A program made the position numbers and the translations under genes. This document shows positions 6,437-57,684 of a DNA stretch of 64,000 nt, piece after piece. Below the pieces are notes generated by a model that ran no database searches, was not told where the DNA came from, and worked only from the letters and a program-made list of their open reading frames with translations. Every line of letters begins with the position of its first letter. The first letter of the stretch is position 1. Source of the stretch: Minisyncoccota bacterium (GTDB lineage Bacteria; Patescibacteriota; Minisyncoccia; Phycocordibacterales; UBA6065); the NCBI GenBank assembly GCA_036400935.1, contig DASWWW010000002.1, forward strand, positions 63,939 to 127,938, written 5' to 3'.

Positions 6437-6463
6437 AATAAAGTTTGATTATTAAAGATGAAA

Positions 6464-10607: not shown

Positions 10608-12491
10608 TTAGCTCAAAACCGCCTTGATGCGGCGAACCCCTGCTGAGACGGCCTCTTCCTTCTGAATCTTAAATGTGCCGAGGGTGCCCGTATTCTCCAC
10701 GTGCGGGCCTCCGCAGAACTCCTTTGATACGGCCGAGTCGATCGACTCGCCAATGTAGTAGACGGAGACGACATCGCCGTACTTGTCGCCAAAGAAATGG
10801 AGCGCGCCGGTCTTTTCAGCCTCTGCTTTCGGCAACTCGACGCGTCGGACAGACAATTTAGCGGAAATATTCTTGTTCACGATCCCCTCGACCCTCTTTT
10901 TCTCGTCATCGGTCATCTTTGCGGTATGGGTAAAATCGAATCGCAATCGTTCAGGCGTAATATTCGATCCCTTCTGCGATACGTGCGTACCGAGAACCTG
11001 TCGGAGGGCCTGGTGGAGCAAATGGGTGGCCGTATGGTACTTCACCGACATTTCCGAGGTGTCACCGAGGCCTCCCTTGAACTTCTGCTCTGCGCCCGCG
11101 CGCGAGAGGTCCTGATGCTTCTTCATTTCGACATCGAAAACAGACTTGGTATCGGCCGCGATAGCGACTTTTTCATACTGGGCGACCTCTACGGCGAGCT
11201 CATACGGGAATCCGTACGAGGTAAAAAGGGTGAAAGCGATGTTGCCGTCAAAAGGCTTGCCGCCTGCGACGAGCTTGTGGAATTCCTTGATGCCGTCAGC
11301 GACAGTCTTGCGGAATTTATCCTCCTCTCGAGCGATCTCCTCAGTGATCATGGCCTTTCGGGCGAAAGTCTCGGGATATGCGTCCTTATAGAAATTCAAA
11401 ATAGTCGGAACGAGACCGGTCAGGCCGCTTTCCCTGATGCCGAGGAGGTCCCAGTGGCGTACAGCGCGTCGCAAGAGGCGTCGCACGAAGTAGCCCTGAT
11501 CGGAGTTCGACGGATTGACGCCGTCGCCGATCAGAAAGATCGATGCTCGGACATGGTCGGCGACTACGCGGAATGACTTGGTGTATTTCTCGTCGGAATA
11601 CGACTTGCCCGAGAGCTTCTCGAGAGTCTCGATCACGCCTGCAAAGATATCGATCTTGAAGACGTCAGGAGTATTCGCAAGAGCCGCGACAATGCGCTCG
11701 AATCCCCCGCCGAAGTCAACGTTTTTCTGAGGAAGCTTCGAGAACGTGCCGTCAGGATTCTTCTTGTACTCCATGAATACGTTGTTTCCGATCTCGAGGA
11801 ATCGCCCGCAGTCGCAGTTTGGGTGGCAATGCTCGCCGTATTTGGTGTCGTGCTCTACATCCGTGAACTCATAGAACATTTCAGTGTCAGGGCCGCCCGG
11901 CTCGTTAGCAGGCATCTTTTCAGGAACTCCGGCACGGCTCCACCAGTTCTTCTTTACGTCGTAATAGAAGATGCGGCCACCCTGCATGCCGACCTTGCCG
12001 CCATTGTCCTCGCTGCCGATCTCGACAACCTTGGCGTCGATGCCCTTAGAGGCAAAAAGGCCTTTCCAAATCTCTACCGCCTCGGTATCCTTCGGGATCT
12101 TATTCTTGTCGTCGCCGATGAATGTCGTTACGTAAAAGCGCTTTGGGTCGATGCCGATTTGGTTTATCAAAAAGTCGAACATCCACGGGATCTGCTCCTG
12201 CTTGAAGAAGTCGCCGAGAGACCAGTTGCCGAGCATCTCGAAGAAAGTCGTATGGCGGTTGTCGCCCACGTCCTCGATGTCGCCCGAGCGGAACGACTTC
12301 TGCGAATCGGCGATGCGCGTGCCTAGAGGATGCTTTTCGCCAAGGAGGTACGGCACCATAGGCTGCATACCGGAGCCAGTAAAGAGCGTCGTAGGGTCGT
12401 TCTCGGGAACGAGGCTCGCCGATGGCACGATTACGTGCCCCTTGCTCTTGAAATAGTCGAAAAAACGCTGCCGTACGTCGTTTGATGTCAT
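10608..12491 (-). CDS. alaS: Alanine--tRNA ligase, short form (catalytic + tRNA-recognition + editing domains; no C-Ala domain)
   Basis: MTSNDVRQRFFDYFKSKGH…NDPTTLFTGSGMQP… class-II AlaRS. Editing-domain HxxxH motif HTATHLLHQAL. 627 aa versus about 870 typical. Confidence 0.92.
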   Translation of the reverse strand: MTSNDVRQRFFDYFKSKGHVIVPSASLVPENDPTTLFTGSGMQPMVPYLLGEKHPLGTRIADSQKSFRSGDIEDVGDNRHTTFFEMLGNWSLGDFFKQEQIPWMFDFLINQIGIDPKRFYVTTFIGDDKNKIPKDTEAVEIWKGLFASKGIDAKVVEIGSEDNGGKVGMQGGRIFYYDVKKNWWSRAGVPEKMPANEPGGPDTEMFYEFTDVEHDTKYGEHCHPNCDCGRFLEIGNNVFMEYKKNPDGTFSKLPQKNVDFGGGFERIVAALANTPDVFKIDIFAGVIETLEKLSGKSYSDEKYTKSFRVVADHVRASIFLIGDGVNPSNSDQGYFVRRLLRRAVRHWDLLGIRESGLTGLVPTILNFYKDAYPETFARKAMITEEIAREEDKFRKTVADGIKEFHKLVAGGKPFDGNIAFTLFTSYGFPYELAVEVAQYEKVAIAADTKSVFDVEMKKHQDLSRAGAEQKFKGGLGDTSEMSVKYHTATHLLHQALRQVLGTHVSQKGSNITPERLRFDFTHTAKMTDDEKKRVEGIVNKNISAKLSVRRVELPKAEAEKTGALHFFGDKYGDVVSVYYIGESIDSAVSKEFCGGPHVENTGTLGTFKIQKEEAVSAGVRRIKAVLS

Positions 12492-14266: not shown

Positions 14267-14869
14267 TTAAATATATTTCTTAAGCGCCTTAAAGTCTTCC
14301 ATCAAAACGGGTTTCATTCCGCCATTGTAGAGGGCGACAGCGGGATGATACAGGGCTATGACCGTAACAGTACCATATGAGGCCGTTCCTTTGAATTCCT
14401 TGCCGTGAATTTTCGAAACGGGCTGAAGCTCCCCTGCCAGGCCGTATTTTTCAAATACGTATTTCATCGAGAGACGGCCAAGGCATGCGATTATGCGCGG
14501 CTTGATTATTTCGATCTGGCGCTCGAGGAATGGGCCGTAGAGCGTGATCTCCTCCGGCGACGGGTCGCGATTATCCTGAGGGCGATCCTTTACGAGATTG
14601 GTCACGTAGACCGTCGTCCGATCCATCTTTATCGAAGCGAGCAGCTCATCGAGCAATTTTCCCGATCGCCCGCAGAAAGGCTTTGCCGTCTTGGCCTCTG
14701 TCTCGCCGGGCGCCTCGCCTACAAACATTATATGCGACTCGTGATTTCCCTCTCCTATGACCGGAAAGTACTTGTTTTCGGTTCGGAAGGCGTACAGGGA
14801 CGACTGCTTGAGATTCAGGATTTCGTCTCGGATCTGCTTGAGCTGGTCGATATTGGAATTCAGCGCCAT
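14267..14869 (-). CDS. Uracil-DNA glycosylase, family 4
   Basis: GEAPGETEAKTAKPFCGRSGKLLDELL motif (GEAPG…PF.G..G). Confidence 0.85.
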   Translation of the reverse strand: MALNSNIDQLKQIRDEILNLKQSSLYAFRTENKYFPVIGEGNHESHIMFVGEAPGETEAKTAKPFCGRSGKLLDELLASIKMDRTTVYVTNLVKDRPQDNRDPSPEEITLYGPFLERQIEIIKPRIIACLGRLSMKYVFEKYGLAGELQPVSKIHGKEFKGTASYGTVTVIALYHPAVALYNGGMKPVLMEDFKALKKYI

Positions 14870-15644: not shown

Positions 15645-15950
15645 CTAGGCGGTTATGCACACGCCCTCGGCCTTCAGCAAGGCGATCTTGGCCTTGTCGC
15701 CTGTCGCGCCGCCGCGGATGCCGTTATAGCCGCCGATCTTGCCATCAGACCTGATGACGCGGTGGCACGGGACCGACTTGTCGGAGTTGTGGGACATGAT
15801 CATGCCGACGGCGCGGGCGCCATTCGGGCTCCCCGCCCGCAACGCGACTTCCTTGTACGTCAAAGTCTTGCCCTTCGGTATGTCCCGAACGACTTTCTCA
15901 ACCATCTCCTTAAAGGAGGCTCGCCGTCTTGTTATTATCGTTTCCTTCAT
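15645..15950 (-). CDS. ogt: Methylated-DNA--protein-cysteine methyltransferase, DNA-binding domain only (Ogt/MGMT-like); start may be the ATG at 15905
   Basis: Active-site PCHRV motif within …VPCHRVIRSDGKIGGY…. Confidence 0.75.
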   Translation of the reverse strand: MKETIITRRRASFKEMVEKVVRDIPKGKTLTYKEVALRAGSPNGARAVGMIMSHNSDKSVPCHRVIRSDGKIGGYNGIRGGATGDKAKIALLKAEGVCITA

Positions 15951-16767
15951 CTTTCTTTGATTTAGATTTTACTTCGGCTCGCTTTGATTCAATTATCTTC
16001 TGGACGAACGGCGCCTGGACCTCGGTTACGAACTTTCGATACATGCAATAGTCGCATACCGGGCTGTGCGCCGGCAGCGTCTCGCTGTCGAGGCATTCGC
16101 GCGCCTGCATGATGGCATCCTCAACCCAGGTATCATCGCCCTTGTGAGGAATGAGGGTGACATCGAATTCGAGCTTCGCATCAAAAGCCTCCTTGTCCTT
16201 GCGCCCATTCACGTACACGAAGTATCCGGTGTCCGAAACCTTGAATCCCTTCTTGCGGAAGAGCCACTGGTACACCTCCATCTGGCGCTTGTACTGGCGG
16301 TCCCACCCGGAATCGGACAAGGTCTCGACTTTGCCGTCCTTCGAAGTCGCTTTGTAGTCGACGATGATCAGCTCGCCCTCCGAATTCACCCACAAGTCGT
16401 CGATCGCGCCGGAAACTGTCAGGCCGGAGGCGGGATGTCGAACCTGTATGCCGACGAAGTTCTCGCGCCAGTCGTTGAGCAGGTCGTGAGAGAAAGGAAC
16501 GGCGTCCACTCCGTATTTTTTCATCAAAGGATGCGACGTCTTTTCCGCGCGATGAAAATCAAACTCCTTCTTGAGCAAGGCGTCTACGGCAATGTTGAGC
16601 GTGAAGGACGGGCCTTTCGGTCGTCCCACGCCGAGCTTGTTGTCGAGGTAAAAGCAGCGCGGGCACTCCATGAAGAGGTCGAGCTTCGATCGGGAGAGTT
16701 TCCACTTTTCGCCGCCATAGTTCCAGTTGGCGCTGCGTATCTGCAATTTTTTGACGTATTCAGCCAT
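15910..16767 (-). CDS. PD-(D/E)XK nuclease with 4 Cys (Cas4/AddB-like Fe-S nuclease fold), standalone
   Basis: IIVDYKAT (D…E.K-type core) with Cys pairs CPRC (N-term) and CDYC (C-term). Confidence 0.7.
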   Translation of the reverse strand: MAEYVKKLQIRSANWNYGGEKWKLSRSKLDLFMECPRCFYLDNKLGVGRPKGPSFTLNIAVDALLKKEFDFHRAEKTSHPLMKKYGVDAVPFSHDLLNDWRENFVGIQVRHPASGLTVSGAIDDLWVNSEGELIIVDYKATSKDGKVETLSDSGWDRQYKRQMEVYQWLFRKKGFKVSDTGYFVYVNGRKDKEAFDAKLEFDVTLIPHKGDDTWVEDAIMQARECLDSETLPAHSPVCDYCMYRKFVTEVQAPFVQKIIESKRAEVKSKSKKDEGNDNNKTASLL

Positions 16768-16780
16768 AGTGATAGCGGGA

Positions 16781-17626
16781 TTATTTACAGACGCTCTTAA
16801 TGTCGGCCATGATTGCCGGAATGCGATCGCGAGGGACGCCCATGCCGACCAACTCCTCCTCGCTCACGTTCAAGTGCCTGCACAGCACGAGCCCGCTATC
16901 CAGGAGCTTTTGCTTGTCCATTTCAGAGAGGCTCGGCAATGCGGTCAGGGGATGAAGGCCCGATTCCTCGATCAGGTCCTCGAGGTTGCCCTTCCTTGGG
17001 TAATTCCAACCGATGAGGGCGAGGTCCTGGCACTCGGCATAGCGGATGGCGTGATCCGTAAACTTCGTATTGGTAATCAGGAAGCATTTTGTGAGCTTGC
17101 GCTTTTTGCCGCCGTATATGAAGCTGCGGCCTTTGAGGTCGTCGAAGCGCGCCTTTATATAGAGGGCGACCTTGATATCGGATTTCAGGCCGGGCTCGTT
17201 GTGGAATTTTGCCTCGACCATAGCGAGCTGATTGCCCTTCCACGCGACGACGTCGATCTCATGCTCGACGCAATGGCCTTCGACCATCTGATCGGTGACG
17301 GCCTCATATCCTTTTGCCTTGAAAATCTCAGCCACGAATTTCTCGAACGGAAAGCCCTTTGGACCGAGTTCCGAGACGGCGCGCTTCATTGAATATTTTA
17401 CGGCGGCGGCAGTCGCGGCCGCTTTTGGCATGCTGCGCAGGAGGTCAAAGGCATGGCGATAGATATCGTTCGTCGTCATGCCGTCGAAAAGCTCCTTCTC
17501 TATGTGCGAGGCGATCTCGTGCGCCTGGCCGGCAGTCGCGCCCGCGCGGCGAAGCGATCCGATGAGCTTCGAAGGGTCGAATACTTCCTGCTCTCCCGTA
17601 GATTTTACGACGAGGATTGGTGACAT
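16781..17626 (-). CDS. ATP-cone domain fused to restriction-endonuclease-like (Mrr-cat-like) domain
   Basis: N-terminus VVKSTGEQEVFDPSKLIGSLRRAGA matches the ATP-cone pattern. Middle segment VEHEIDVVAWKGNQLAMVEAKF looks like a D-x(n)-E-x-K core. Confidence 0.65.
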   Translation of the reverse strand: MSPILVVKSTGEQEVFDPSKLIGSLRRAGATAGQAHEIASHIEKELFDGMTTNDIYRHAFDLLRSMPKAAATAAAVKYSMKRAVSELGPKGFPFEKFVAEIFKAKGYEAVTDQMVEGHCVEHEIDVVAWKGNQLAMVEAKFHNEPGLKSDIKVALYIKARFDDLKGRSFIYGGKKRKLTKCFLITNTKFTDHAIRYAECQDLALIGWNYPRKGNLEDLIEESGLHPLTALPSLSEMDKQKLLDSGLVLCRHLNVSEEELVGMGVPRDRIPAIMADIKSVCK

Positions 17627-23385: not shown

Positions 23386-26289
23386 CTACTGTTTGATAAC
23401 AAAGGAAACGAGCTTGCCTGGTACCACGATAATCTTGTCGGGCTTCTTGTCCCCTACCCACTTTCTGACGTCGTCAAGGGCGAGCGCGGCCTTCTCGAGG
23501 CTCTCTTTCGACGCGTCCGGCGCCGCCGAGAAGCTTGCCCGCACCTTGCCGTTGACCTGGACGACGATGGTCGCCATGGCGTCCTTCAGCTTGGCCTCGT
23601 CGGCTACCGGCCATTCGGAAACATGGATGGATTTCTTATTGCCGAGGCCCTGCCAGAGCTCTTCCGTAATGTGCGGGGCGAGCGGTGCGAGGAGCTTGAG
23701 GAATGACTCGAAATCGGCGCGGGAAATCGCAGCTTCCTTTTCAAACGCATTCGAAAGGATCATGAGTGAACTCACGGCCGTGTTGTGCCGCAAAACTGAC
23801 ATGTCCTCGGACACTTTCTTTATGGTCTTGTGCAAGAGGGTCTCGGTCTCTGGGCTGAGCTTTGCCTCCGGCGCGTTCTTTGCGGGCTTTGCTGCGACTT
23901 TCTCGGACAATTTCCAGACGCGCTCGAGGAATCGGCGGGTTCCGATCATGCCGTTCGTATTCCAGGCGATCGCCTGGTCGAAGGGGCCCATGAACATCTC
24001 GTATACGCGCATGGTATCGGCGCCGTATGACGCGACGATCTCGTCAGGATTGACAACATTGCCGAATCGCTTCGACATCTTTCGTCCGTCCTCGCCCATG
24101 ATAAGGCCGACCGACTGCAATTTCTTGAACGGTTCGAGCGTCGAGACCGCGCCGATGTCGTAGAGGAACTTGTGCCAGAATCGCGCGTAGATCAAATGGC
24201 GGGTAGCATGCTCCGCGCCGCCGACATAGAAGTCGACCTGGCTCCAATACTTCTCCTGATCCTTCCCTACGATCGCTTTTGAGTTCTGCGGATCCATAAA
24301 GCGCAGGTAGTACCACGAAGAGCCCGCCCACTGGGGCATGGTGTTCGTCTCGCGCCTGAGGATTTTCGCACTCTTGCCCGATCCAACCTTCACATTCACC
24401 CACTTCGAGATGTCGGCGAGAGGAGATTCGCCCGTACCCGTAGGCTCGTACGACTTTACCTTCGGCAATTCGACAGGAAGATCTTTCTCAGCGACAGGAA
24501 TGTTCGTATCGCCGTCCTTCATGATCGGAAAAGGCTCGCCCCAGTAGCGCTGGCGAGAGAATACCCAGTCCTTGAGCTTGTATTTTACGACCCACCTGCC
24601 TCCGACGGCTTCGGTGATCTTTTTCTTGGCATCGACAGACTTTTGTCCGTCGAATTTTTCGGAATTGATGAGGATGCCCTCGTCAGTCATGCAGAAATTC
24701 GGAGAAAGCATGTCCCAGGCGACCTTAAGATCCGGTCGGTTTACGAAATCGCGGACCTTTTCGCGAGGAACCCAGACGATCTCGTGGAGATTCTTCTCTT
24801 CAGCCGCGGTCTCCTTCTGAGCGCCGTCCTTGAGGTGGAGCTCGACTACCACGAAATGGCCGAGGCGATTCTCTTTCTTGGCGTCGTGATAAAACTGCGA
24901 GTTTACTCGGCCGAGAGTCTTTACGTATTTGGCGTTGATGTAGCCGGTCTCCTCGGCGACTTCTCGCTCGGCGGTAACCGCCTCGCTCTCGTTGCCATCG
25001 ATGCCGCCGGTGACGAAACCCTGCCAATCATTGGTCCTCCATTTCGAGCAGAGATACTTGTCTTCAGACCAGTGCTTGATAAGGCACATGACGGCGGTCC
25101 TCTCCACGAAAGGCTTGTCCGCGCGCACGGCATCGAGGCCGTCCTTCTTGGCGAACAGCGCCTCGACGACCGGCTTTACCGGCAATTTGTATTTGGTGGC
25201 GAACTCCATGTCGCGCTCGTCGTGAGCGGGAACGGCCATAACCGCGCCCGTGCCATATTCGGCGAGGACATAGTCAGCGACGTATACAGGAACCTCCTCG
25301 TTGTTTGCGGGATTAATGGCGAAGACGCCGTCGAGCCTTACGCCGGTCTTGTCCTTCTTGGCGTCGGTGCGCTCGATCTCGGTCATCATGCGGGCATGAG
25401 CGACGTATTTGATGACTTCGTCTCGATTCTTGAGGGTTTTCAAGTCAGCGATGAGATTGGTGACGAAAGAATGCTCGGGAGCGACCACGACGTACGTGAC
25501 TCCGAACAATGTGTCGGGTCGAGTGGTGAAAACGGTGAGCTTTTCAGGCGAATTTTTGCCGGCTACTTTCAATGCAAAGCCGATCTCGGCACCTTCGGAG
25601 CGCCCGATCCAGTTTCGCTGGGATTCCTTGATCGATTCAGGCCATTCGAGCTGGTCGAGATCGGCGAGGAGACGGTCCGCATAGTCGGTGATGCGCAAGA
25701 CCCACTGGCGCATCTTCTTTTTCTCTACGGGAGTGCCGCAGCGCTCGCATTTGCCGTCCTCCACGTCCTCGTTCGCGAGGCCGGTCTTGCACGAGGGGCA
25801 CCAGTTGATCGGCTCGTACGATTCGTATGCCAAGCCCTTCTCCAGGAGCTTGAGGAAGATCCACTGAGTCCATTTGTAAAATTTCGGGTCGGTCGTATTG
25901 ACCTCGCGAGACCAGTCGTAGTCGAAGCCGAGGATTTCGAGCTGCTTCTTGTAGCGCGCGACGTTCTTTGCCACGGCGACCGAGGGGTTCGTCTTGGTCT
26001 TGATAGCATAATTTTCCGCCGGGAGGCCGAAGGCGTCGAAGCCCATAGGATGCAGCACGTTGAATCCCTGCATGCGCTTCATGCGGGAGACGATATCGGT
26101 AGCGATATAGCCCTTGGGATGCCCCACGTGGAGTCCTTCGCCTGAAGGATAAGGAAACATGTCGAGGACGTAGAATTTCGGCTTGTCGGAGGCTTCTGAG
26201 GTCTTATAGGTCTTCTTGGATTGCCATTCTTTCTGCCATTTCTTCTCGATTTTGGAGTGGTCGTACTTTTTCTGTGCCATGAAATTCAT
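23386..26289 (-). CDS. leuS: Leucine--tRNA ligase
   Basis: …PYPSGEGLHVGHPKGY… HIGH region, KMSKR motif (RKMSKRFGNVV), 967 aa. Confidence 0.95.
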   Translation of the reverse strand: MNFMAQKKYDHSKIEKKWQKEWQSKKTYKTSEASDKPKFYVLDMFPYPSGEGLHVGHPKGYIATDIVSRMKRMQGFNVLHPMGFDAFGLPAENYAIKTKTNPSVAVAKNVARYKKQLEILGFDYDWSREVNTTDPKFYKWTQWIFLKLLEKGLAYESYEPINWCPSCKTGLANEDVEDGKCERCGTPVEKKKMRQWVLRITDYADRLLADLDQLEWPESIKESQRNWIGRSEGAEIGFALKVAGKNSPEKLTVFTTRPDTLFGVTYVVVAPEHSFVTNLIADLKTLKNRDEVIKYVAHARMMTEIERTDAKKDKTGVRLDGVFAINPANNEEVPVYVADYVLAEYGTGAVMAVPAHDERDMEFATKYKLPVKPVVEALFAKKDGLDAVRADKPFVERTAVMCLIKHWSEDKYLCSKWRTNDWQGFVTGGIDGNESEAVTAEREVAEETGYINAKYVKTLGRVNSQFYHDAKKENRLGHFVVVELHLKDGAQKETAAEEKNLHEIVWVPREKVRDFVNRPDLKVAWDMLSPNFCMTDEGILINSEKFDGQKSVDAKKKITEAVGGRWVVKYKLKDWVFSRQRYWGEPFPIMKDGDTNIPVAEKDLPVELPKVKSYEPTGTGESPLADISKWVNVKVGSGKSAKILRRETNTMPQWAGSSWYYLRFMDPQNSKAIVGKDQEKYWSQVDFYVGGAEHATRHLIYARFWHKFLYDIGAVSTLEPFKKLQSVGLIMGEDGRKMSKRFGNVVNPDEIVASYGADTMRVYEMFMGPFDQAIAWNTNGMIGTRRFLERVWKLSEKVAAKPAKNAPEAKLSPETETLLHKTIKKVSEDMSVLRHNTAVSSLMILSNAFEKEAAISRADFESFLKLLAPLAPHITEELWQGLGNKKSIHVSEWPVADEAKLKDAMATIVVQVNGKVRASFSAAPDASKESLEKAALALDDVRKWVGDKKPDKIIVVPGKLVSFVIKQ

Positions 26290-40525: not shown

Positions 40526-40729
40526 ATGAGGCCCTTCGTTCTTTCCGTTCTTGCAGAAATGGGCATTCCCGACTGGCCACTTGATAAGGACGGCCTGCCA
40601 ATAGCCAAATGGTCTGATTTCGTGGGCGAAGTCAGAATAGTTTGCCACAGCATGACTGGAAGCATGGCCCGTCACAAGATTCTCCATAAGTGGAAAGCCG
40701 CCCTGCTAGAATTTGATCCTGTTATTTAG
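40526..40729 (+). CDS. candidate small protein (67 aa) followed by a terminator
   Basis: ATG at 40526 in the frame of ORF 40157-40729. Hairpin + T7 at 40739-40768 argues for a plus-strand transcript ending here. Confidence 0.2.
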   Translation: MRPFVLSVLAEMGIPDWPLDKDGLPIAKWSDFVGEVRIVCHSMTGSMARHKILHKWKAALLEFDPVI

Positions 40730-40738
40730 TGATTTTGT

Positions 40739-40768
40739 AGCACCGGGTATATACTCGGTGTTTTTTAT
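40739..40768 (+). terminator. Rho-independent terminator (CACCG-ggtatatact-CGGTG + T7)
   Basis: Read directly. Confidence 0.5.
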
Positions 40769-40869
40769 TTAAAAGCAGGACTCGGTCACGGGTATTTTTC
40801 TACTGAAAAATCCCGCGACCCCGCCTCGCGCCGTCGCGCTCCGGCTTTCTCGTCCTGTAATACCCAACC

Positions 40870-40911
40870 AAACGAAGAAAAGCACCTCTTAAGAGGTGCT
40901 TTTCTTCGTTT
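40870..40911 (-). terminator. 42-bp perfect palindrome hairpin downstream of tRNA-Ala(UGC)
   Basis: aaacgaagaaaagcacctctt/aagaggtgcttttcttcgttt. Confidence 0.55.
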
Positions 40912-40912
40912 G

Positions 40913-43373: not shown

Positions 43374-44669
43374 TTAGAACTTCCCCTTCCTCGGATTCCT
43401 CATCCTGCGCAATTTTCGATGGTATGAAAGAGAAAATCGGTGCGCTTCATGGTTTGCGAGGAGGATGGATTTCTTGTGCTGCTCGATCAGAGCGGCGCCG
43501 GATTCGTCGCCGAGCAGTCCTGCTGGCTTGTGGCGCTCGTCTTTGACCACGGACACTATCGGGACGTTGATACCGCGCTCCGCGAACACCTTCATGGCGA
43601 GATTGAGCTGGTTCTGGCCGCCATCTATGACCACCAGGTCAGGAGTGCGCCATTCCGGGTGATTGAAGCGCCTCTCGATGATCTCGCGCAGGCTCGCCGT
43701 GTCGTTGTTGCCGATCTCCGGGGACAGCTTGAACTTGCGATACTCATTCTTATCGAGCTCGCCATCCGAGACGACAGTCATGACGCCGGCGCTCTCCTTG
43801 CCGGACATATGCGCGGTATCGTACGCCTCGATGCGGAATGCGCGATTGAGCACGGAACCGTCCGCGCCGATTACCCCGCTGTCATTTGCGCCCGCGGTTC
43901 GGGTAATGAGCTCGACATCCTCCTTGATGAGGGCGATATCACGGATATGGTCGAGGGCGAACATCTTCTGGCGCACCTCGGCGGCCTTCTCGAATCGCAA
44001 TGCCTTGGCATGCTCGTCCATCTCGCGGCCGAGCGCGGCCAGGAGCTTGCCCTTCTTGCCCTCGAAAAAGAGGATGATATGGTCGATATTCTTTTGATAC
44101 TCGATGCGAGCCTCCTCAGACGCAGTATCAGGGGCAAGCCCAAGCTGACGATAGAAGATAGCCGTGTATTTCGACGAGGAATGCTTGTCGATAAACGGAA
44201 ACATTTTGCGGATGATCTTCAGAGCCTCACGCAAGGCAGAACCGTTGGTAAACGGGCCGAAGGTCTTGCGAACCCTGAGCTCCTTCTTCTGGCGCTCGAC
44301 CTCGAGCGTCCTGCCGCGGATGATGAGGATGCGCGGGAACTTCTCTTTGGTTATGACGACGTAGTTAAAGCTGCGATCGTCCTTCTCCTTTACGTTATAG
44401 TCGGGCCAGTGCTTCTTGATGAGGTTTGCCTCGGCGATCATTGCCTCGAGAACCGAATCAGTCTCGACCCACTCGATCGTATCCGACTTGAAAACCATGT
44501 CGACCAATCGCGGCCCGCGGGTATGTATGAGATCCGCGCCGAAATAGCTGCGTACGCGGTCGCGCAGGCTGGTCGCCTTGCCTATGTACAATATTTTCCC
44601 GGCAGATTTCCAGAAGTAGACTCCTGGCGCGTCGGGCATATTGAGCTTTGCGAATTCGGCTATGGTCAT
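43374..44669 (-). CDS. uvrC: Excinuclease ABC subunit C, short form lacking C-terminal HhH
   Basis: GIY-YIG N-terminus (GVYFWKSAGKILYIGKATSLRDRVRSY). 431 aa. Confidence 0.85.
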   Translation of the reverse strand: MTIAEFAKLNMPDAPGVYFWKSAGKILYIGKATSLRDRVRSYFGADLIHTRGPRLVDMVFKSDTIEWVETDSVLEAMIAEANLIKKHWPDYNVKEKDDRSFNYVVITKEKFPRILIIRGRTLEVERQKKELRVRKTFGPFTNGSALREALKIIRKMFPFIDKHSSSKYTAIFYRQLGLAPDTASEEARIEYQKNIDHIILFFEGKKGKLLAALGREMDEHAKALRFEKAAEVRQKMFALDHIRDIALIKEDVELITRTAGANDSGVIGADGSVLNRAFRIEAYDTAHMSGKESAGVMTVVSDGELDKNEYRKFKLSPEIGNNDTASLREIIERRFNHPEWRTPDLVVIDGGQNQLNLAMKVFAERGINVPIVSVVKDERHKPAGLLGDESGAALIEQHKKSILLANHEAHRFSLSYHRKLRRMRNPRKGKF

Positions 44670-44874
44670 ACGCTATTATTCTTGCATTATATCATAAAGT
44701 ATGCTGTAATACTACTTGAACCATGAAAGAATCCCGCTTTTCAGCCGTTTGGCGCCGAAAGCGCGCCAAACGTCCGGAATCTGGTAAAATAAGCCAGGCC
44801 TCCGCCTTTCCGAAACTCCACTCCGTCCGCTCGCGCAGACGTTCCAAACCTTTCAGATCAACCTGTTCCCCACA

Positions 44875-45426
44875 ATGATACCCGTCAACGCAAACACGCG
44901 CTCGCACTACACCGTCGCCGGCCTAGCGCTCGGCCACAAGCTCAGCCCCCGGTCGCGCTATTGGCTCAACAATAGCCTGCGATTCCTCATCAAATGGGGC
45001 ACGATCGCTCTCGTAGTCACAGTCCCCCTACTGGCGGTCCATCCGTTCGTACTCGGACTCTACAAGAGCTATCCGTGGCTGCCCTTCGCTGCCGCCCTCG
45101 GGCCCGGTGCCATCCTGTCGACGATTTACCTCGTCTTCAAGACGCCCAGGGAAACCGCAAGGCTGTCGCCGGAGGACCGCGACGCGATCAACGCGCGACT
45201 CAGGAACTTCTGCCTGCTGTGCGCCTCGATCGCCATGGTAATCCTGGCGATTTCGATGGCGCATCCCATGCTTCGGAGCTTCTACGAGGAGCACGTGCCA
45301 TTGCTTGTCGGTCTTCTCGCCGCCATCCTCGTCCTCCCCGCAACCCTGTACTACTTGGTCAAGATGCCAAGGGGTCAGGCGAAGCGCCATCGGGAAACCC
45401 CCGACCTGGAGGCGCGGACAGCGTAG
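44875..45426 (+). CDS. hypothetical membrane protein (4 TM)
   Basis: Hydrophobic helices. A terminator follows. Confidence 0.6.
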   Translation: MIPVNANTRSHYTVAGLALGHKLSPRSRYWLNNSLRFLIKWGTIALVVTVPLLAVHPFVLGLYKSYPWLPFAAALGPGAILSTIYLVFKTPRETARLSPEDRDAINARLRNFCLLCASIAMVILAISMAHPMLRSFYEEHVPLLVGLLAAILVLPATLYYLVKMPRGQAKRHRETPDLEARTA

Positions 45427-45431
45427 TCACC

Positions 45432-45461
45432 GCAGGCCCCATAAAGGCCTGCTTTTTTATT
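45432..45461 (+). terminator. Rho-independent terminator (GCAGGCC-loop-GGCCTGC + T6)
   Basis: Read directly. Confidence 0.65.
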
Positions 45462-45551
45462 TGACACATTTATAATATGATGTAAAGTATTGAGCGGGAA
45501 ATTCCTTTCCCTTGCACAGTTACAACCCGACAAGTCAGTACCTCACAAACC

Positions 45552-45887
45552 ATGAAGTTCACGCCTTACGGCAAGAAATCGTTCCAACGGCTCAAGAAGG
45601 GCTACATCCTCCTGAAGGACGGCGCCAAGCGCGCGTTCCAGGCCTTCTCGGTCGCGCACGCGCTCGAGGCTATCAAGACAGCGCTCCGTCTCAACGACGC
45701 GAGCCATCCGACCCTCAAGGCAGCAAATGTGGTCAAGGCGTTCCTCGGCAGTCACACGGTCATCGATTTCAGCGCGACCATGTCGAAGGCCCGCAGCGCC
45801 GGCCGCAGCAATCGCTGGACGATTAAGAAGCGCCCCAGCCGCCATCCCAACGCTCCCAGCCGGCGCGGCGCCCTTGCCTTCGCCTAA
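45552..45887 (+). CDS. hypothetical basic protein (111 aa)
   Basis: TATAAT upstream. A terminator follows. Confidence 0.5.
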   Translation: MKFTPYGKKSFQRLKKGYILLKDGAKRAFQAFSVAHALEAIKTALRLNDASHPTLKAANVVKAFLGSHTVIDFSATMSKARSAGRSNRWTIKKRPSRHPNAPSRRGALAFA

Positions 45888-45913
45888 ATTTTCGGCAACT
45901 TCAGATACGGCAA

Positions 45914-45948
45914 GCCCCGATTCGCGAGAATCGGGGCTTTTTATTTTC
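45914..45948 (+). terminator. Rho-independent terminator (GCCCCGATTC-gcga-GAATCGGGGC + T5ATTTT)
   Basis: Read directly. Confidence 0.65.
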
Positions 45949-45956
45949 CAAATTTT

Positions 45957-48596
45957 CTATTTCTTCTTCAGCAGCTTCTTTAGATACATTCCCGTATGGC
46001 TCTTCGGATTGGCCGCCACGTCCTCGGGAGTTCCCTTGGCCACGACGTACCCGCCGCCCTTTCCGCCTTCAGGGCCCATATCGACGATATAGTCGGCGCA
46101 CTTGATGAGGTCGAGGTTGTGCTCGATGACGATGACGGTATTGCCGTGATCGACGAGCTTCTGGAGGATCTCGACGAGCTTGCGCACGTCCTCGTAGTGG
46201 AGTCCGACGGTCGGCTCGTCCAAGAGGAAGACGGTCTTGTGGGTGTCAGGCCTGTAGAGCTCAGACGAGATCTTTACGCGCTGCGCCTCTCCTCCCGACA
46301 ATGTCGTAGCGGACTGGCCGAGCTCGAGATATCCGAGGCCCACTTCAGAGAGCGTCTTGAGCCTGTCATAGATCGCAGGGATGTCCTCAAAGAATTTGAG
46401 CGACTCCTCGACAGTCATCTCAAGCACGTCGAATACGCTCTTGCCCTTGTATTTGACCTCTAGAGTCTCCTTGGTAAAGCGCTTGCCCTGGCAGATCTCG
46501 CACGGTACGTAGACGGTCGGCAAGAAATGCATTTCGACCGCGATCTCGCCGTTTCCTTGGCAGGCTTCGCAGCGTCCGCCCTTTACATTGAACGAAAAGC
46601 GGTTCGATTTCCACCCTCGGGCGCGGGCCTCGGAAGTCTCGGCGAACATCTCGCGAATGTAGGTCCACGCGCCGGTGTATGTGGCCGGGTTCGAGCGCGG
46701 GGTTCGCCCGATCGGAGACTGGTCAATGAGGATCGTTCGCGAGACGTACTCAGTTCCCGTAAACGACGTCGCATTGAAGGTCTCGTTCGTCCTGTGGCGC
46801 TTCTCGAGGCGTGCCTGGAGGTTCTTATGGACGATCTCGTAGAGGAACGAAGACTTTCCGGAGCCGGACACGCCCGTAATGGCTACGAGCTTGCCGAGCG
46901 GCAGGTCTGCCGAAAGATTCTTGATATTGAAGATGTTTCCGCCCTTGATCGAGAGCTTGCCCTTGTCGTGGTTGCGGCGGACGTCCGGAAGCTCGATTTT
47001 CATCTCGCCTCGCAGGTAGCTCAGGGTAAGCGAATTCGAGTCGTTTTTCTTGGCGGTGAGAAGAGGCTCGAGATAGTCGGCCACGACGACGTTTCCGCCG
47101 TGCACGCCGGCGCCCGGACCGATGTCGATAATGTAATCGGACGCGAAAATGGTGTCCTCATCGTGCTCGACGACGAGAATGGTGTTGCCGAGGTCGCGCA
47201 GGTTGAGCAAGGTCTTGATCAGGCGGTCGTTATCGCGCTGGTGGAGGCCAATCGTAGGCTCATCCAGAACATATAGCGCGCCCACGAGGCCGGAACCGAG
47301 CTGCGACGCCAGCCTGATGCGCTGCGCCTCGCCTCCTGACAGCGTATGGGCGCGGCGGTCGAGCGTAAGGTACTCGATGCCCACGTCGAGCATGAATTTC
47401 AGGCGCGATTCGATCTCCTTGAAGACGGCCTTGGCGATCGTACGCTCCTTGTCCGAGATTTTCGCATTATTGAAGTAGTCGAAAGCCTGAGCGATCGACA
47501 TGGTCGTCACGCCCACGATAGAGACGCCGTCGATGAGGACGTGCAGGGCCTCCTCGCGCAGTCGTGCGCCCTTGCAGGTGTCGCACGGCTCGTCGCCGAA
47601 GATGTATTTCGTTCCGAGGCCGTTACAAGCGGGACACGCTCCATATGGCGAGTTGAATGAGAACAGGCGCGGCTCCACCTCTGGGTATGCGTAGCCGTCG
47701 TACGGGCACATGAACTTTACCGACATCAATTTTTCGGTCGGCGCGTCCTTTCCAGGCGTCTCGATCTTCAGGAGGCCGCCTGATTCGTTCACCGATCGCT
47801 CGATAGCTTCGGCAAGGCGCTCGCGCACGCCCTTTGGGTCGTTCTTGAACTCGCTGATATAGAACTCGTCGATGAGGATGTCGATGTCGTGCTTCTTGTT
47901 CTTCTCAAGCTCGATGCGCTCGCGGAGCTTTTTCACGACGCCGTCGATTTTGACGGTCTCATAGCCCTTGCCGAGGTAGTCGTAGAGCATCTGGTAGTAC
48001 TCGCCCTTGCGGCCGACCACGACCGGCGAGTAGATGCGAACTTTCGCCTTGTCTACGGGCACGCCCATTACTTTGGTGCCGTGATCTTCGGTCTTTATGT
48101 GGTTGATGCTGTCGAAAACGGTCTCAAGGATCTCCTCATTTGAGAGTTTTTTGATCTCGCGGTTGCAGATGAGGCAGTGCGGATGACCGATGCGCGCGAA
48201 AAGCACGCGCAGATAGTCGTAAATTTCGGTCTGGGTGGCGACGGTCGAGCGCGGATTGTTCGAGCGAGATTTTTGGTCGATAGAGATGGCTGGCGAGAGT
48301 CCGGAAATCTCGTCCACATCGGGCTTCTGCATCTGGCGCAAGAACTGGCGAGCGTATGACGAGAGCGACTCCACATAGCGACGCTGGCCCTCGGCGAAAA
48401 TGGTATCGAAAGCGAGCGACGACTTTCCGGAGCCGGAAAGGCCGGTAAACACGACCATCTTGTTGCGCGGCATGTCGACCGTGATGTTCTTCAGGTTGTG
48501 GGTGCGCGCGCCCTTTACCACGAGCTTGTCCGCGCCGGGATTGAAATCCGCCTTTGCATGCGAATGCGAGTCGTTTTTTGTGGTTTTTTTGCTCAT
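45957..48596 (-). CDS. uvrA: Excinuclease ABC subunit A
   Basis: Two ABC ATPase modules ([12 protein letters not shown]…; [12 protein letters not shown]…) and zinc-finger Cys. 879 aa. Confidence 0.95.
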
Positions 48597-48685
48597 TATC
48601 GTTGGTTTAGCCGCCTATATATAGGACTTCGCCCCTGGCGCGTCGCTAGGGGTTTGATGGTACCATCTTAGCAGATCACGACACT

Positions 48686-49039
48686 TTACGAAAGCCGTCC
48701 ACCCCTAAAAGCCTGAAGGCTGCGAACTGCTCTGATAATATCGGATTTCCAATAGCCGCCGCGTTCCGCATCTTTGTCCGAGTCCATACCCAAATCCCGC
48801 TTTTTTATGCGACGCAAAAGGCCGCGTTCGCAGAGCCTTTTGAGTGCGTAGTGGACATTGCCGCGAGAAACTTTCAAGTCGCGCGCGATTGCGGTAGTTG
48901 ATCTCGGATTATTCCACGTAGCAATAATTATTTTCCGCTCCATTTGCGTCAACCCAAGAACATCAAAGCACCGGTCGTTCACTGAAGGCGCCGGATTATT
49001 TTTTCCATACTGGTGCTGCTCTATCTCTTTTTCCATCAT
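48686..49039 (-). CDS. small winged-helix HTH transcriptional regulator (MarR/TrmB-like), likely autoregulated
   Basis: …LTQMERKIIIATWNNPRSTTAIARDLKVSRGNVHYALKRLCERGLL…. Its start codon lies inside a 21-bp perfect inverted repeat. Confidence 0.7.
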   Translation of the reverse strand: MMEKEIEQHQYGKNNPAPSVNDRCFDVLGLTQMERKIIIATWNNPRSTTAIARDLKVSRGNVHYALKRLCERGLLRRIKKRDLGMDSDKDAERGGYWKSDIIRAVRSLQAFRGGRLS

Positions 49040-49080
49040 AGGGATTTTGTAGTATTTTTTACTACAAAATCCCTATGATG
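49034..49080. promoter_or_regulatory. perfect 21-bp inverted repeat CATCATAGGGATTTTGTAGTA-ttttt-TACTACAAAATCCCTATGATG (operator candidate)
   Basis: Read directly. It overlaps the ATGATG start of the regulator. Putative -35/-10 (TTACTC-N17-ATATAT) lies just upstream on the minus strand. Confidence 0.6.
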
Positions 49081-49125
49081 GAAAATATATCTCTCACCCA
49101 ATCTCCCGAGTAATTTCTGAGAAGA

Positions 49126-49785
49126 CTATAATTTCCTTATCGCCTCTACCAATTCTGGAAAATGCTCTACCCTGAAATGCCCGCGATCTTTGAACGTGAC
49201 GAGCTCCGCCTCCGGCATGCCCTTCTTGTAGAGCTTTGCATGCGAGGCGGCGACCACCTTGTCGTCCTCGCTATGATAGATGGCCATCTTGCCCGACTGC
49301 GCTACGAGCTTTTTGAAGAATCCCGGCTTGTCGCTCACGGTAAAGCCCGCGTTCGCGCGCATTCCCGGATGGCCGCTTCCCTTCTTGCCCGGCTTGAAAA
49401 ATGGCGCTGCGACTAGAAACACTCCAGCGATCTTTACCTTTAGTTTGTTCTCGCTCAGGTAGCGGGCAAGGAAAATGCCGCCGAGAGAATGTCCGACAAG
49501 TACCGCGCCGCCATTCCCACCCGTCAGGAACGCTGCCGCCTTTTCAAAAACGACCTTCCACTCCTCATATTTGGCGTCCTCGGGCGAAGGCATCTCCGGC
49601 TGGAACACTTCAAAATTGCCGGCCGCCTTGCCGCCGTTCAGGTCCTCGCCCAGATTGTCCTTCCACCTCTTTGATCGGTCGCGGAAGAGATCCTCGCGTT
49701 TCATCGGCTCCTTCTTGAGGGACGCCAGATATTCCGCGCGAGTGTCGAAGAAATTTCCGCCATGTATTGCGAGCACCTGTTTCAT
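49126..49785 (-). CDS. alpha/beta-fold serine hydrolase (YdeN/RBBP9-like)
   Basis: …AVLVGHSLGGIFLARYL… nucleophile elbow GHSLG. Start overlaps the uvrB stop by 4 nt. Confidence 0.7.
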   Translation of the reverse strand: MKQVLAIHGGNFFDTRAEYLASLKKEPMKREDLFRDRSKRWKDNLGEDLNGGKAAGNFEVFQPEMPSPEDAKYEEWKVVFEKAAAFLTGGNGGAVLVGHSLGGIFLARYLSENKLKVKIAGVFLVAAPFFKPGKKGSGHPGMRANAGFTVSDKPGFFKKLVAQSGKMAIYHSEDDKVVAASHAKLYKKGMPEAELVTFKDRGHFRVEHFPELVEAIRKL

Positions 49786-51908
49786 ATTATTTCATCGCTA
49801 TTCTTATCCTTAGCCGCCTTTTCCTCCGCCTTCTTACCGGAAAGCCTCTTTTTCTTGTCTACCTTGGGCGGCTTTGGCGCTGCTGCATCGAGCTTTTCGT
49901 ACAAGGCCTGGATCTCGTCTCGCAAGAGCGCTGCCGTCTCGAAATCGAGCAACTTGACCGCATCGTTCATCTGGCGCTCCTTCTCGCGGATCAGGGCCTT
50001 TGGATCCTTGGCGAACATGGCCTCGTCGATCTTCAACTGCTCCTTTACGGCCTTCTTGTGCTCGGTCTGCATGTGGTCGGTGATATCCTTGATCGCCTTG
50101 ATGATTGTCTTTGGGGTGATGCCGTGCTTTGCATTGTACGCCTCCTGGATTTTGCGGCGGCGGTTAGTCTCCTTTACAGCGCGCTCGATCGAGCCGGTTA
50201 CCTGATCAGCATAAATAATCACGCGGCCCTCGGCATTTCGCGCGGCGCGGCCGATGATCTGAATGAGCGAGGTCTCCGATCGCAGGAATCCCTCCTTGTC
50301 CGCGTCCAAAATGGCGATCAATGCCACCTCGGGCAAGTCGAGTCCCTCTCGCAAGAGGTTGATACCGACAAGCACGTCGAATTCGCCGCGGCGGAACTTG
50401 GTCAGGATCTCGATTCGGTCGATCGTCTTGATATCGCTATGCAAGTATTCGGACTTGATCTTCCTTTCCTTGAGGTAGTCCACGAGGTCCTCGGCCATCT
50501 TTTTCGTCAGCGTCGTAAGGATGACGCGGAAGCCTGCCTTGATGGTCTTTTCTGCCTCGGCGATAGAGTCGGCGATCTGGCCGGGGAATGGATTCTTCCC
50601 TGCTTTCGTTTCAGTAACCGGCTTTATGGTGACGACCGGATCCAAGAGGCCAGTCGGTCGGATGACCTGCTCCATGATCTGGGTGCTGTTCTCCTTTTCG
50701 TACGCGCCCGGGGTCGCCGACGTATAGACGGTCTGGCCGACGCGCTGCTCAAACTCGCTGAACTGCAGCGGGCGGTTGTCGCGAGCCGACGGCAGGCGGA
50801 ATCCGTGCTCGATCAGGGTGTTCTTGCGGGACTGGTCGCCGGCATACATGCCCCCGATCTGCGGGATGGTCACGTGCGACTCGTCGATGATGGTAAGGAA
50901 GTCAGGCGTGCCGTCTGCCTTGTGCGGGAAGTATGACAAAAGGGTTTCAGGCGCCTCGCCCGGAGCCTTGCCTGCGAAATGGCGCGAATAGTTCTCGATG
51001 CCGTTGCAGTAGCCGACCTCGCGAATCATGGCGAGATCGTAGGTCGTGCGGCGCTTCAGGCGCTCCGCCTCGAGGTTCTTTCCCTCGGACTTGAGCTGCT
51101 CTAGCCGCGCGTCGAGCTCGGCCTTGATCGAGTTGAAGGCGCTCTCGATCTGAGCCTTGTCGGTGATGAAATGCTTTGCCGGAAAGAGGAAGAATACGTC
51201 GAGAGGCTTGAGGAGCGCTCGCGTCACGTGATCGATCTGGTCGATATGGCTCACGACGCCGCCGTCAAAGCTGATGCGGTAGATGACTTTTTCGTTTACG
51301 GGCATGACTTCGATCATGTTTCCGATGGCGCGCATCTGGCCCGGCTCGAGGTCGGCGTTGGTGCGCTCGAAATGGATGCCGACCATGCGGCGGATCATCT
51401 CCATGCGGTCGGCTTTCATGCCGACAGAGACTTTCATATTTACCTTCTCGTATTCTTTCGGCGAGCCGAGACCGTATATGCACGAAACTGATGCCACGAT
51501 GATGACATCCTTTCGCGTAAGCAAGGCTTGAGTCGAGGCATGGCGCAATCGCTCGATCTCCTCGTTGATCATGGCCTCCTTCTCGATATAGGTATCAGTG
51601 ACGGGCATGTACGCCTCCGGCTGGTAGTAGTCGTAGTACGAGACGAAATAATGTACGGCATTCTCTGGGAAGAATTCCGCATACTCCTGGGCGAGCTGCG
51701 CCGCGAGAGTCTTGTTATGCGCGATGACAAGCGTCGGCTTGCCCACCTGAGCGATCACGTTCGCGGCCGTAAAGGTCTTTCCCGAGCCGGTAACGCCCAA
51801 AAGCGTCTGGTGGCGAGCGCCGGACTTTATGCCCTTTACGAGGCCTTCTATGGCCTTTGGCTGGTCTCCTGCGGGCGCAAACCCGTTATGTACCTTGAAT
51901 AATGGCAT
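49782..51908 (-). CDS. uvrB: Excinuclease ABC subunit B
   Basis: …LLGVTGSGKTFTAANVIAQ… helicase motifs. C-terminal UVR domain …ALLRDEIQALYEKL…. Confidence 0.95.
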   Translation of the reverse strand: MPLFKVHNGFAPAGDQPKAIEGLVKGIKSGARHQTLLGVTGSGKTFTAANVIAQVGKPTLVIAHNKTLAAQLAQEYAEFFPENAVHYFVSYYDYYQPEAYMPVTDTYIEKEAMINEEIERLRHASTQALLTRKDVIIVASVSCIYGLGSPKEYEKVNMKVSVGMKADRMEMIRRMVGIHFERTNADLEPGQMRAIGNMIEVMPVNEKVIYRISFDGGVVSHIDQIDHVTRALLKPLDVFFLFPAKHFITDKAQIESAFNSIKAELDARLEQLKSEGKNLEAERLKRRTTYDLAMIREVGYCNGIENYSRHFAGKAPGEAPETLLSYFPHKADGTPDFLTIIDESHVTIPQIGGMYAGDQSRKNTLIEHGFRLPSARDNRPLQFSEFEQRVGQTVYTSATPGAYEKENSTQIMEQVIRPTGLLDPVVTIKPVTETKAGKNPFPGQIADSIAEAEKTIKAGFRVILTTLTKKMAEDLVDYLKERKIKSEYLHSDIKTIDRIEILTKFRRGEFDVLVGINLLREGLDLPEVALIAILDADKEGFLRSETSLIQIIGRAARNAEGRVIIYADQVTGSIERAVKETNRRRKIQEAYNAKHGITPKTIIKAIKDITDHMQTEHKKAVKEQLKIDEAMFAKDPKALIREKERQMNDAVKLLDFETAALLRDEIQALYEKLDAAAPKPPKVDKKKRLSGKKAEEKAAKDKNSDEII

Positions 51909-51970
51909 CTAGTTACTATAGCGCACCACGAGCGGGACATAAAGAGGACCCCTGCGATACGCGTAGTAGA

Positions 51971-52000
51971 AATAAAAAGCCGCGCACGAAGTGCGCGGCC
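51971..52000 (-). terminator. Rho-independent terminator (GCCGCGCAC-ttc-GTGCGCGGC + T5ATTT)
   Basis: Read on the minus strand directly after the 52008 stop. Confidence 0.65.
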
Positions 52001-57648: not shown

Positions 57649-57684
57649 CAAGCAAAAGCCCTCTTATTAGAGGGCTTTTGCTTG
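57649..57684 (-). terminator. 16-bp-stem palindromic terminator after rpoD (CAAGCAAAAGCCCTCT-tatt-AGAGGGCTTTTGCTTG)
   Basis: Read directly. Confidence 0.65.

Follow-up and report, generated by a model that had tools for sequence, protein, structure and literature searches.

In repressors of the MarR family, such as ST1710/BldR of Sulfolobus, ZitR/AdcR and OhrR, a palindromic site at the 5' end of the regulator's own gene is the classical autoregulatory layout. The excision-repair genes uvrB and uvrA normally adjoin in Firmicutes (Bacillus, Clostridium), where they form the LexA-controlled 'uvrBA operon', and the LexA-independent regulators PafBC, DdrO/IrrE, DriD and DdiA are proteins of the WYL-domain or XRE type that often have a sensor or a protease as partner and whose motifs are common to repair genes. 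We have analysed a locus that invites comparison with all of these, in a stretch of 64,000 nucleotides from a Minisyncoccota bacterium, a metagenome-assembled genome that the source name of an identical protein places in Candidatus Paceibacterota (contig DASWWW010000002.1, positions 63,939 to 127,938 of the forward strand; the whole stretch is called the window below), in which the gene for a small winged helix-turn-helix (wHTH) protein lies between uvrB and uvrA and starts inside a perfect palindrome. The reading that we consider probable, although with appreciable doubt, is that the uvr neighbourhood is an ordinary one and that the wHTH protein is an accessory repressor of its own gene, acting on its own palindrome, rather than a damage regulator of the whole cluster. 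The two elements central to this reading are as follows.

48686-49039, minus strand: gene for the wHTH protein, 117 amino acids (Pfam MarR_2, HTH_24).
49029-49085: perfect palindrome of 57 bp, with arms at 49029-49054 and 49060-49085 of 26 nt each, 100% complementary, about a 5-nt AT spacer.

The wHTH protein is like the MarR autorepressors in having a winged helix with flanking helices and a palindrome at the 5' end of its own gene. Its match to MarR_2 (PF12802) was above the Pfam cut-off (31.3 bits against 27) and that to HTH_24 scored 27.6 bits, whereas the matches to MarR itself (PF01047, 22.8 bits against 24.6) and to TrmB (PF01978, 24.2 bits against 25.6) fell below theirs, so that the protein is not assigned to the TrmB family. 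In the AlphaFold model (predicted local distance difference test score, pLDDT, 83), helices at residues 2-13 (N-terminal) and 100-111 (C-terminal) flank the wHTH domain; the protein ends about 35 residues past the wing, with no effector domain, and the Pfam scan found no LexA_DNA_bind, Peptidase_S24 or sensor domain in it. The nearest folds were those of MarR proteins (ST1710, ZitR), of the Lrs14-like proteins AbfR2 and ST1889 and of the ArsR/SmtB protein CzrA. Against MarR structures the template modelling (TM) score was about 0.55, for a monomer about 30 residues shorter than typical MarRs, and the best two-way values, 0.58/0.59 with a root-mean-square deviation of 3.5 Å, were obtained with AbfR2 (6cmv) and ST1889 (2d1h), which are of similar size; a profile of the family matched the MarR protein BldR (3f3x) with E = 2e-6. 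Because of the MarR_2 score, the fold neighbours and the BldR match, we take the protein, judged by its sequence and its predicted fold, to be a minimal MarR/TrmB-like DNA-binding protein, of a rare family restricted to the Candidate Phyla Radiation (CPR).

A word-index protein search with the wHTH protein gave almost no homologues beyond the protein itself, and an exhaustive HMMER search of 1.8 billion representative proteins gave 20 matches with E < 1e-3. About 12 of these 20 are proteins of 99-148 amino acids with the pattern FDILGLSxxERKIIxATW...IPRxSLPYxLKxLxxRGL...WxSD, and every traceable member of the family comes from a CPR-type contig. The closest are the homologue in locus L005 (51% identity) and protein P0004 (44% identity); a metagenome scan yielded one family locus and a scan of GTDB genomes, with the hydrolase encoded next to the wHTH gene as the query, yielded one relative. 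Another CPR contig, L011, carries two paralogues with different palindromes, at 5955-6488 (plus strand), before rpiB, and at 11882-12250 (minus strand), between cysS and dnaB. The family differs from the MarR autorepressors in length (99-125 amino acids compared with about 140-150), in showing no evident ligand or metal pocket, in having perfect palindromes of up to 57 bp as presumed operators, far beyond MarR boxes, and in being very rare and confined to CPR. The family pattern LGLSxxE(R/A)K...(I/V)P(R/K)xS(L/V)xYxLxxLxxRGL resembles the N-terminal wHTH of TrmB, although the sugar-binding C-terminal domain of TrmB is lacking and, in contrast to the archaeal TrmB and Lrs14-like regulators, to which identity is below 25%, the host is a bacterium. 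We regard the protein as a new CPR-restricted member of the MarR/TrmB-like autorepressors, and as likely to be autoregulated.

The proximal arm of the palindrome takes in the opening 11 nt of the wHTH open reading frame (ORF), ATGATGGAAAA, and so covers the start codon or codons. An earlier note, made on the sequence alone, had described a 117-residue winged-helix protein whose start lies within a perfect 21-bp inverted repeat with a 5-nt spacer, read as an autorepressor operator; the protein, the position of its start and the spacer agree with what we found, whereas the arms are really 26 nt long. The choice of the ATG at 49039 as the start is supported because the N-terminal MxEK is common to the window protein and its L005 homologue, and the proximal arm with the start codon can be aligned between the two loci (CAAAATCCCTATGATGGAAAAAG compared with AAATTTGCCTATGCTAGAAAAAC). 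We propose TTTGTAGTA-N5-TACTACAAA as the core of a putative operator. Four independent Logan assemblies, made from other sequencing runs, have exactly the same intergenic sequence around the palindrome, which is therefore not an assembly artefact. In site searches of the window with the 21-mer, the 26-mer arms, the 25-bp core and the 13-mer core with mismatches, the 21-mer half-site was found only as the two arms of the palindrome, where no match was expected by chance. Among all the perfect inverted repeats of the window with arms of at least 10 nt, none matches this one in length or has so low a GC content (0.28); the remainder are GC-rich and terminator-like. Two further perfect palindromes form terminator-like hairpins of the form AAAAGC...GCTTTT: one at 40869-40912, with 22-nt arms and no spacer, abuts the 3' end of tRNA-Ala(TGC), and one at 57649-57684, with 16-nt arms, lies just 3' of rpoD.

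The main support for autoregulation comes from the other members of the family. We compared the 200 nt upstream of the family genes at nine loci (the window, L005-L011 and the two paralogues of L011, here L011a and L011b). A perfect inverted repeat with arms of at least 8 nt lies no more than 130 nt upstream of the start codon at eight of them, against a background of 0.06 such repeats per 130 nt in 190 kb of the same loci (binomial P = 1.3e-9), and the arms reach at least 15 nt at four (P = 1e-7). The lengths of the arms, with the gene contexts of the distant members, are these.

Window: arms of 26 nt.
L007: arms of 23 nt; gene after def-fmt, with fmt/hpf as neighbours.
L010: arms of 18 nt; gene after pth.
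L009: arms of 15 nt; gene among gapdh, rpiB, rpe and tkt.
L006: arms of 10 nt; gene before a GT4/MraY-like gene.
L008: arms of 9 nt; gene between cysS and dnaB.
L011a: two copies with 8-nt arms; gene among gapdh, rpiB, rpe and tkt.
L011b: arms of 8 nt if perfect, or 16 nt with one mismatch; gene between cysS and dnaB.

All of these palindromes have the layout TTTG-N2-3-[T/G]AAAWTTT[A/C]-N2-3-CAAA in common, with A/T at the centre. The cores at L006, L008 and L010 differ from one another at no more than two of 21 positions, despite lying in different genomes and gene contexts, and in all the corresponding proteins (P0015, P0007 and P0017) the recognition helix begins with IPRGS; other motifs at this point go with other palindromes, SRGN in the window and PVTS, PQKS, PKGS, PRSS and PRHR elsewhere. 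Recognition helix and operator thus apparently co-vary across the family. Such a pattern would be expected if a dimeric repressor acted on an operator of its own, and the palindrome of the window is, on these comparisons, very probably the operator of the wHTH protein itself; the operator supposed from the window alone is in this way strengthened by an association of gene and palindrome that runs through the family and by the co-variation of helix and site. At L009 the palindrome GGTTATTTACTTAAAATTTAAGTAAATAACC is present twice, at 1301-1337 and 5937-5967: one copy precedes the wHTH gene and the other stands by itself between gapdh and rpiB. The solo copy has 18-nt arms, and the similarity continues for about 30 nt beyond them; it may be another operator, or else the regulatory region has been duplicated here or survives as a relic.

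The mechanism that we propose starts from a variable slot in the host genome, which holds a hydrolase gene and the gene of the accessory 117-residue MarR/TrmB-like protein. A dimer of this protein would bind the 57-bp palindrome, which lies across the start of the protein's own gene, at its AT-centred core, and once bound would shut off its own expression in a negative autoregulatory loop. An inverted duplication or template switch of the ancestral promoter-proximal arm would have extended the symmetry past the limits of a usual footprint and 11 nt into the coding region, with the side effect that the read-through transcript from uvrB and the hydrolase gene could fold into a hairpin that hides the AUG. 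At most, the wHTH protein would modulate that part of uvrA transcription which comes from the wHTH promoter by read-through. The DNA binding, the dimerisation, the repression, the promoter positions and the origin of the long arms are the parts of this scheme that we infer.

The hairpin just mentioned might instead be the main purpose of the palindrome, which would then serve chiefly as an RNA or DNA structure, insulating the uvrB-hydrolase transcript or hiding the wHTH AUG, with any protein binding incidental. In its RNA form the palindrome gives a hairpin of -39.5 kcal/mol (z = -10) with the AUG inside the stem, its arms extend well beyond what a protein would cover, and a promoter-like site, TTGGTA-N16-TATAGT at 49152-49125, would give a transcript whose leader holds both arms. 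Nevertheless, we give this explanation little weight. The -10 of the corresponding site in L005 reads TATAGG and is not conserved, and there is no U-tract after the hairpin; with no T-run after the palindrome on either strand, an intrinsic terminator is ruled out. In the other members the palindrome stands 16-126 nt before the start codon, which it leaves uncovered, so sequestration of the start codon is not the mechanism of the family. A search of Rfam over the palindrome returned only spurious microRNA-hairpin models, far under their gathering scores.

The position of the wHTH gene among the repair genes had suggested to the author of the earlier note that uvrB, the hydrolase gene, the regulator gene, uvrA and uvrC form an unusual cluster on one strand, possibly under a regulator that responds to DNA damage independently of LexA. 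The order, the strand and the identities agree with the ORF positions and the Pfam matches, as listed here.

49782-51908, minus strand: uvrB, 708 amino acids (Pfam ResIII, UvrB_inter, Helicase_C, UvrB, UVR).
49126-49785, minus strand: alpha/beta hydrolase, Ser_hydrolase (PF06821), 219 amino acids.
48597-48685, minus strand: uvrA upstream region, 89 nt, from the wHTH stop codon to the uvrA start.
45957-48596, minus strand: uvrA, 879 amino acids (Pfam UvrA_inter, ABC_tran).
45912-45939, plus strand: GC-rich hairpin with a T-run, terminator of the 111-residue ORF, just beyond the uvrA stop codon.
44875-45426 and 45552-45887, plus strand: two ORFs without a Pfam match, of 183 and 111 amino acids, between uvrA and uvrC.
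43374-44669, minus strand: uvrC, 431 amino acids (Pfam GIY-YIG, UVR, UvrC_RNaseH).

The idea that this clustering is exceptional is overstated, given that uvrB and uvrA adjoin in Firmicutes and that the arrangement in the window is found throughout its clade. The order tgt ... uvrB, variable slot, uvrA, one or more small ORFs, uvrC and ddl is seen in the window, L005, L016 and L017, and in L018 without uvrB; it is ordinary synteny of one Paceibacterota clade and not special to the host genome. UvrA orthologues of 83-93% identity are abundant in Paceibacterota, and orthologues of the hydrolase occupy the same slot in L005 (80% identity) and L016. As in the Firmicutes operon, uvrB is upstream of uvrA on the same strand and the repair domains are the standard ones; the differences are that one to three variable genes separate uvrB from uvrA in the Paceibacterota clade, that uvrC in the window lies about 1.3 kb downstream, that there is no Cheo box near the genes, and that uvrA of the window has a promoter-like motif and a conserved leader hairpin of its own. 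We examined the neighbourhoods of three of the closest UvrA orthologues by hidden Markov model (HMM) search and found no member of the wHTH family in any of them.

L016 (UvrA 93% identity): uvrB, REC-only response regulator, hydrolase, uvrA.
L017 (UvrA 87% identity): uvrB, HEPN protein, 231-residue ORF, uvrA, then uvrC-ddl.
L018 (UvrA 86% identity): dus, META, uvrA, one small ORF, uvrC, ddl.

The contents of the slot lie at 6053-7061 in L016 (REC-only response regulator and hydrolase) and at 5618-7199 in L017 (HEPN protein and unknown ORF). In the contigs of P0004 and P0006 a gene for a REC-only protein is followed by the wHTH gene in this slot, and one might speculate that such a pair is a split response regulator.

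A gene that comes and goes in this way might be no more than cargo, and we considered whether the wHTH gene and its palindrome were left behind or carried in by a mobile or defence-island element that had entered a variable hotspot, and play no part in controlling host genes. It is present or absent among close relatives in a slot whose contents vary (REC-only protein, HEPN protein), its GC content is about 0.50 compared with 0.55-0.62, the 20 matches mark a very rare family, and the solo palindrome of L009 could be read as a leftover. However, no relatives were found in the viral contigs or phage genomes searched, there is no flanking transposase, integrase, repeat or tRNA-adjacent junction, and vertical inheritance is suggested by contexts that recur across genomes, with two examples each of cysS-wHTH-dnaB and gapdh/tkt/rpiB. 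We consider this explanation very improbable indeed.

The other suggestion in the earlier note, that the wHTH protein could be a LexA-independent damage regulator of uvrB, uvrA, uvrC and itself, seems to us quite unlikely. In its favour, the wHTH gene lies between uvrB and uvrA on the same strand and is adjacent to uvrA again in L005 and in the contig of P0004; no lexA or recA was found among the scanned ORFs of the window, and the GAAC-N4-GTTC (Cheo-type) LexA box is not enriched in the window and does not occur upstream of the uvr genes. Against it, a damage network built on LexA has reportedly been described for Patescibacteria (Sanchez-Osuna et al. 2017). The copies of the repeat and the lexA gene that the earlier note had proposed to look for genome-wide were sought within the 64 kb of the window: the palindrome is single there, lexA is absent, and no operator or half-site was found upstream of uvrA, uvrB or uvrC, even when nine mismatches in 25-26 nt were allowed. 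The search for a regulon in the window yielded the palindrome only, plus one borderline half-site. This half-site, CTACAAAATCaCTA at 40727-40740 (minus strand), agrees with the proximal arm at 13 of 14 positions and lies 40-52 nt upstream of a gene for a DUF2238 membrane protein (start 40687); it has no inverted partner and is borderline by the level expected from chance. The hexamers TACTAC/GTAGTA, the innermost 6 nt of the arms, occur 15 times in the 64 kb, and one copy each lies no more than about 55 nt before uvrB (at 51963) and uvrC (at 44710), a placing that would suit a common regulator; we rejected them as sites, their flanks being dissimilar to the operator and their spacing different. 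Neither a common site upstream of the supposed targets nor co-occurrence of regulator and targets was seen in the window and L016-L018, where relatives have the same uvr genes without the regulator. The distant members stand beside unrelated genes (dnaB, rpiB/tkt, the GT4 gene and fmt/hpf), one of the two findings that the earlier note had named as refuting its idea; the other, a repeat present a single time, holds within the 64 kb. The wHTH protein resembles PafBC, DdrO/IrrE, DriD and DdiA only in the idea of a non-LexA regulator beside repair genes; unlike them it has neither a sensor domain nor a common motif, and it also lacks an S24 peptidase domain and is dispensable in relatives.

The uvr genes appear, moreover, to have start signals of their own. 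A -10-like hexamer, TATAGT at 51915-51920, lies 6 nt from the ATG of uvrB, whose mRNA may on this ground be leaderless, and a terminator-like hairpin of the gene upstream of uvrB lies at 51978-52000. The start of the hydrolase gene and the stop codon of uvrB overlap by 4 nt, which suggests translational coupling of the two. For uvrC there is an extended -10-like site, TGATATAAT, at 44686-44694. The end of uvrA and the start of uvrC are 1,287 nt apart, and uvrC would be a separate transcription unit because this gap is filled by the two plus-strand ORFs (44875-45887), which have a promoter-like site and terminator-like hairpins of their own. By Pfam the UvrABC domain set is complete except for the C-terminal (HhH)2 of UvrC, in which the scan found no HhH match; UvrC is of a short form throughout the clade, 428-437 amino acids with GIY-YIG, UVR and RNase H-like domains and no detected (HhH)2 (window 43374-44669, minus strand; L005 14131-15444; L017 12851-14137; L018 11168-12466). 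A tRNA-Leu(CAG) called by ARAGORN antisense within the coding region of uvrB, at 51021-51096 (plus strand), is probably a false positive.

The signals of uvrA itself are the most telling. In the 89 nt that separate the wHTH gene from uvrA, an extended -10-like site, TGCTAAGAT at 48665-48673, is followed by a leader hairpin, CCCCTAGCG/CGCCAGGGG at 48632-48652, and no operator-like site was found there. The motif TG(C/T)TA is invariant in all five aligned uvrA upstream regions (window, L005, L016, L017 and L018) and the hairpin is present in four (all but L016), some of them at loci without the wHTH gene, with altered loops (GCAA) and some compensatory changes in the stem. As a conserved element it reads TG(C/T)TAA, then ACCCCTAG...CTAGGGG as the hairpin, with GNRA-like GCAA loops in two relatives, and it lies at 48597-48685 (minus strand) in the window, 11058-11153 in L005, about 7940-8000 in L017 and about 7930-8000 in L018; no Rfam family matches the leader, which may be a clade-specific leader or regulatory RNA element. 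Because motif and hairpin are kept in relatives without the wHTH gene, uvrA would have its own clade-conserved expression signals, and because uvrA, uvrB and uvrC have promoter-like sites of their own and no operator, the wHTH protein is probably not a cluster-wide damage regulator.

Self-repression by an accessory protein, as we favour it, has several observations to contend with. The perfect 26-nt arms far exceed known MarR footprints, so part of the palindrome may serve some other purpose or none. At the same position in L005 there is only a 13/17 imperfect repeat, not significant alone (P about 0.085), and autoregulation through a start-site palindrome is thus not conserved within the uvrA-linked subgroup; the distal arm of the window looks like a lineage-specific inverted copy running into the coding sequence, and the long arms would be most simply explained by a template switch or inverted duplication that 'perfected' a quasi-palindrome. 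The promoter-like sites are inconsistent across the family loci, and the operator search reached over 64 kb of the host genome. Finally, the three closest members (window, L005 and P0004), and perhaps P0006, sit directly upstream of uvrA, which hints at a functional tie of the wHTH protein to uvrA that our reading treats as secondary.

This last point leads to an alternative that we hold possible, if doubtful, namely that the wHTH gene and uvrA are one regulated unit, in which repression at the palindrome sets the dosage of uvrA only, much as paralogues linked to pentose-phosphate genes appear to control rpiB. The place next to uvrA has been kept in the three closest members while their proteins diverged to 44-51% identity, and in the contig of P0004 the gap between the two genes is 13 nt. 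No terminator-like site was found between the hydrolase gene, the wHTH gene and uvrA, so that read-through is possible, and read-through into uvrA from the regulated wHTH promoter is plausible. Elsewhere in the family, P0012 lies 4 nt upstream of rpiB behind two operators, and the L009 palindrome recurs between gapdh and rpiB. On the other hand, the clade-conserved promoter-like motif and leader of uvrA lie past the wHTH stop codon and are independent of the palindrome, relatives do without the regulator altogether, no signal-sensing element is evident in it, and the second palindrome of L009 may be a duplicate or relic, the roughly 30 nt 3' of it being similar as well. Weighing these, we retain accessory self-repression as the probable role of the wHTH protein.

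Elsewhere in the window, the leucyl-tRNA synthetase (23386-26289, minus strand, 967 amino acids) has a NUDIX hydrolase domain (residues 416-512) inserted after its editing domain, an unusual fusion. A protein of 281 amino acids (16781-17626, minus strand) joins an N-terminal ATP-cone to an Mrr_cat restriction-endonuclease-like domain, and its gene has genes for a PD-(D/E)XK/Cas4-like nuclease (15910-16767) and a UDG-family glycosylase (14267-14869) as neighbours.

For DNA repair the outcome is mainly negative, in that the uvr cluster is ordinary synteny with an accessory regulator and should not be cited as a new damage-response system on sequence grounds. The part worth pursuing is the pattern of private operators across the family. 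As a tentative suggestion, which we think rather unlikely to hold in full, the wHTH proteins may represent an undescribed, fast-evolving CPR family of repressors of about 100 residues, with long, perfect, private AT-centred palindromes that co-evolve with the recognition helix, stationed before housekeeping genes (uvrA, dnaB, rpiB-tkt and the GT4/MraY-like gene) and making up a modular layer of regulation in genomes otherwise poor in regulators; the uvrA subclade would then gate the dosage of excision repair, possibly together with the REC-only regulator. Very little is known of transcriptional control in CPR/Patescibacteria, and mini-repressors with readable operators would offer a tractable entry point to it, since the apparent co-variation of helix and operator could be approached in vitro with no need to cultivate the organisms.

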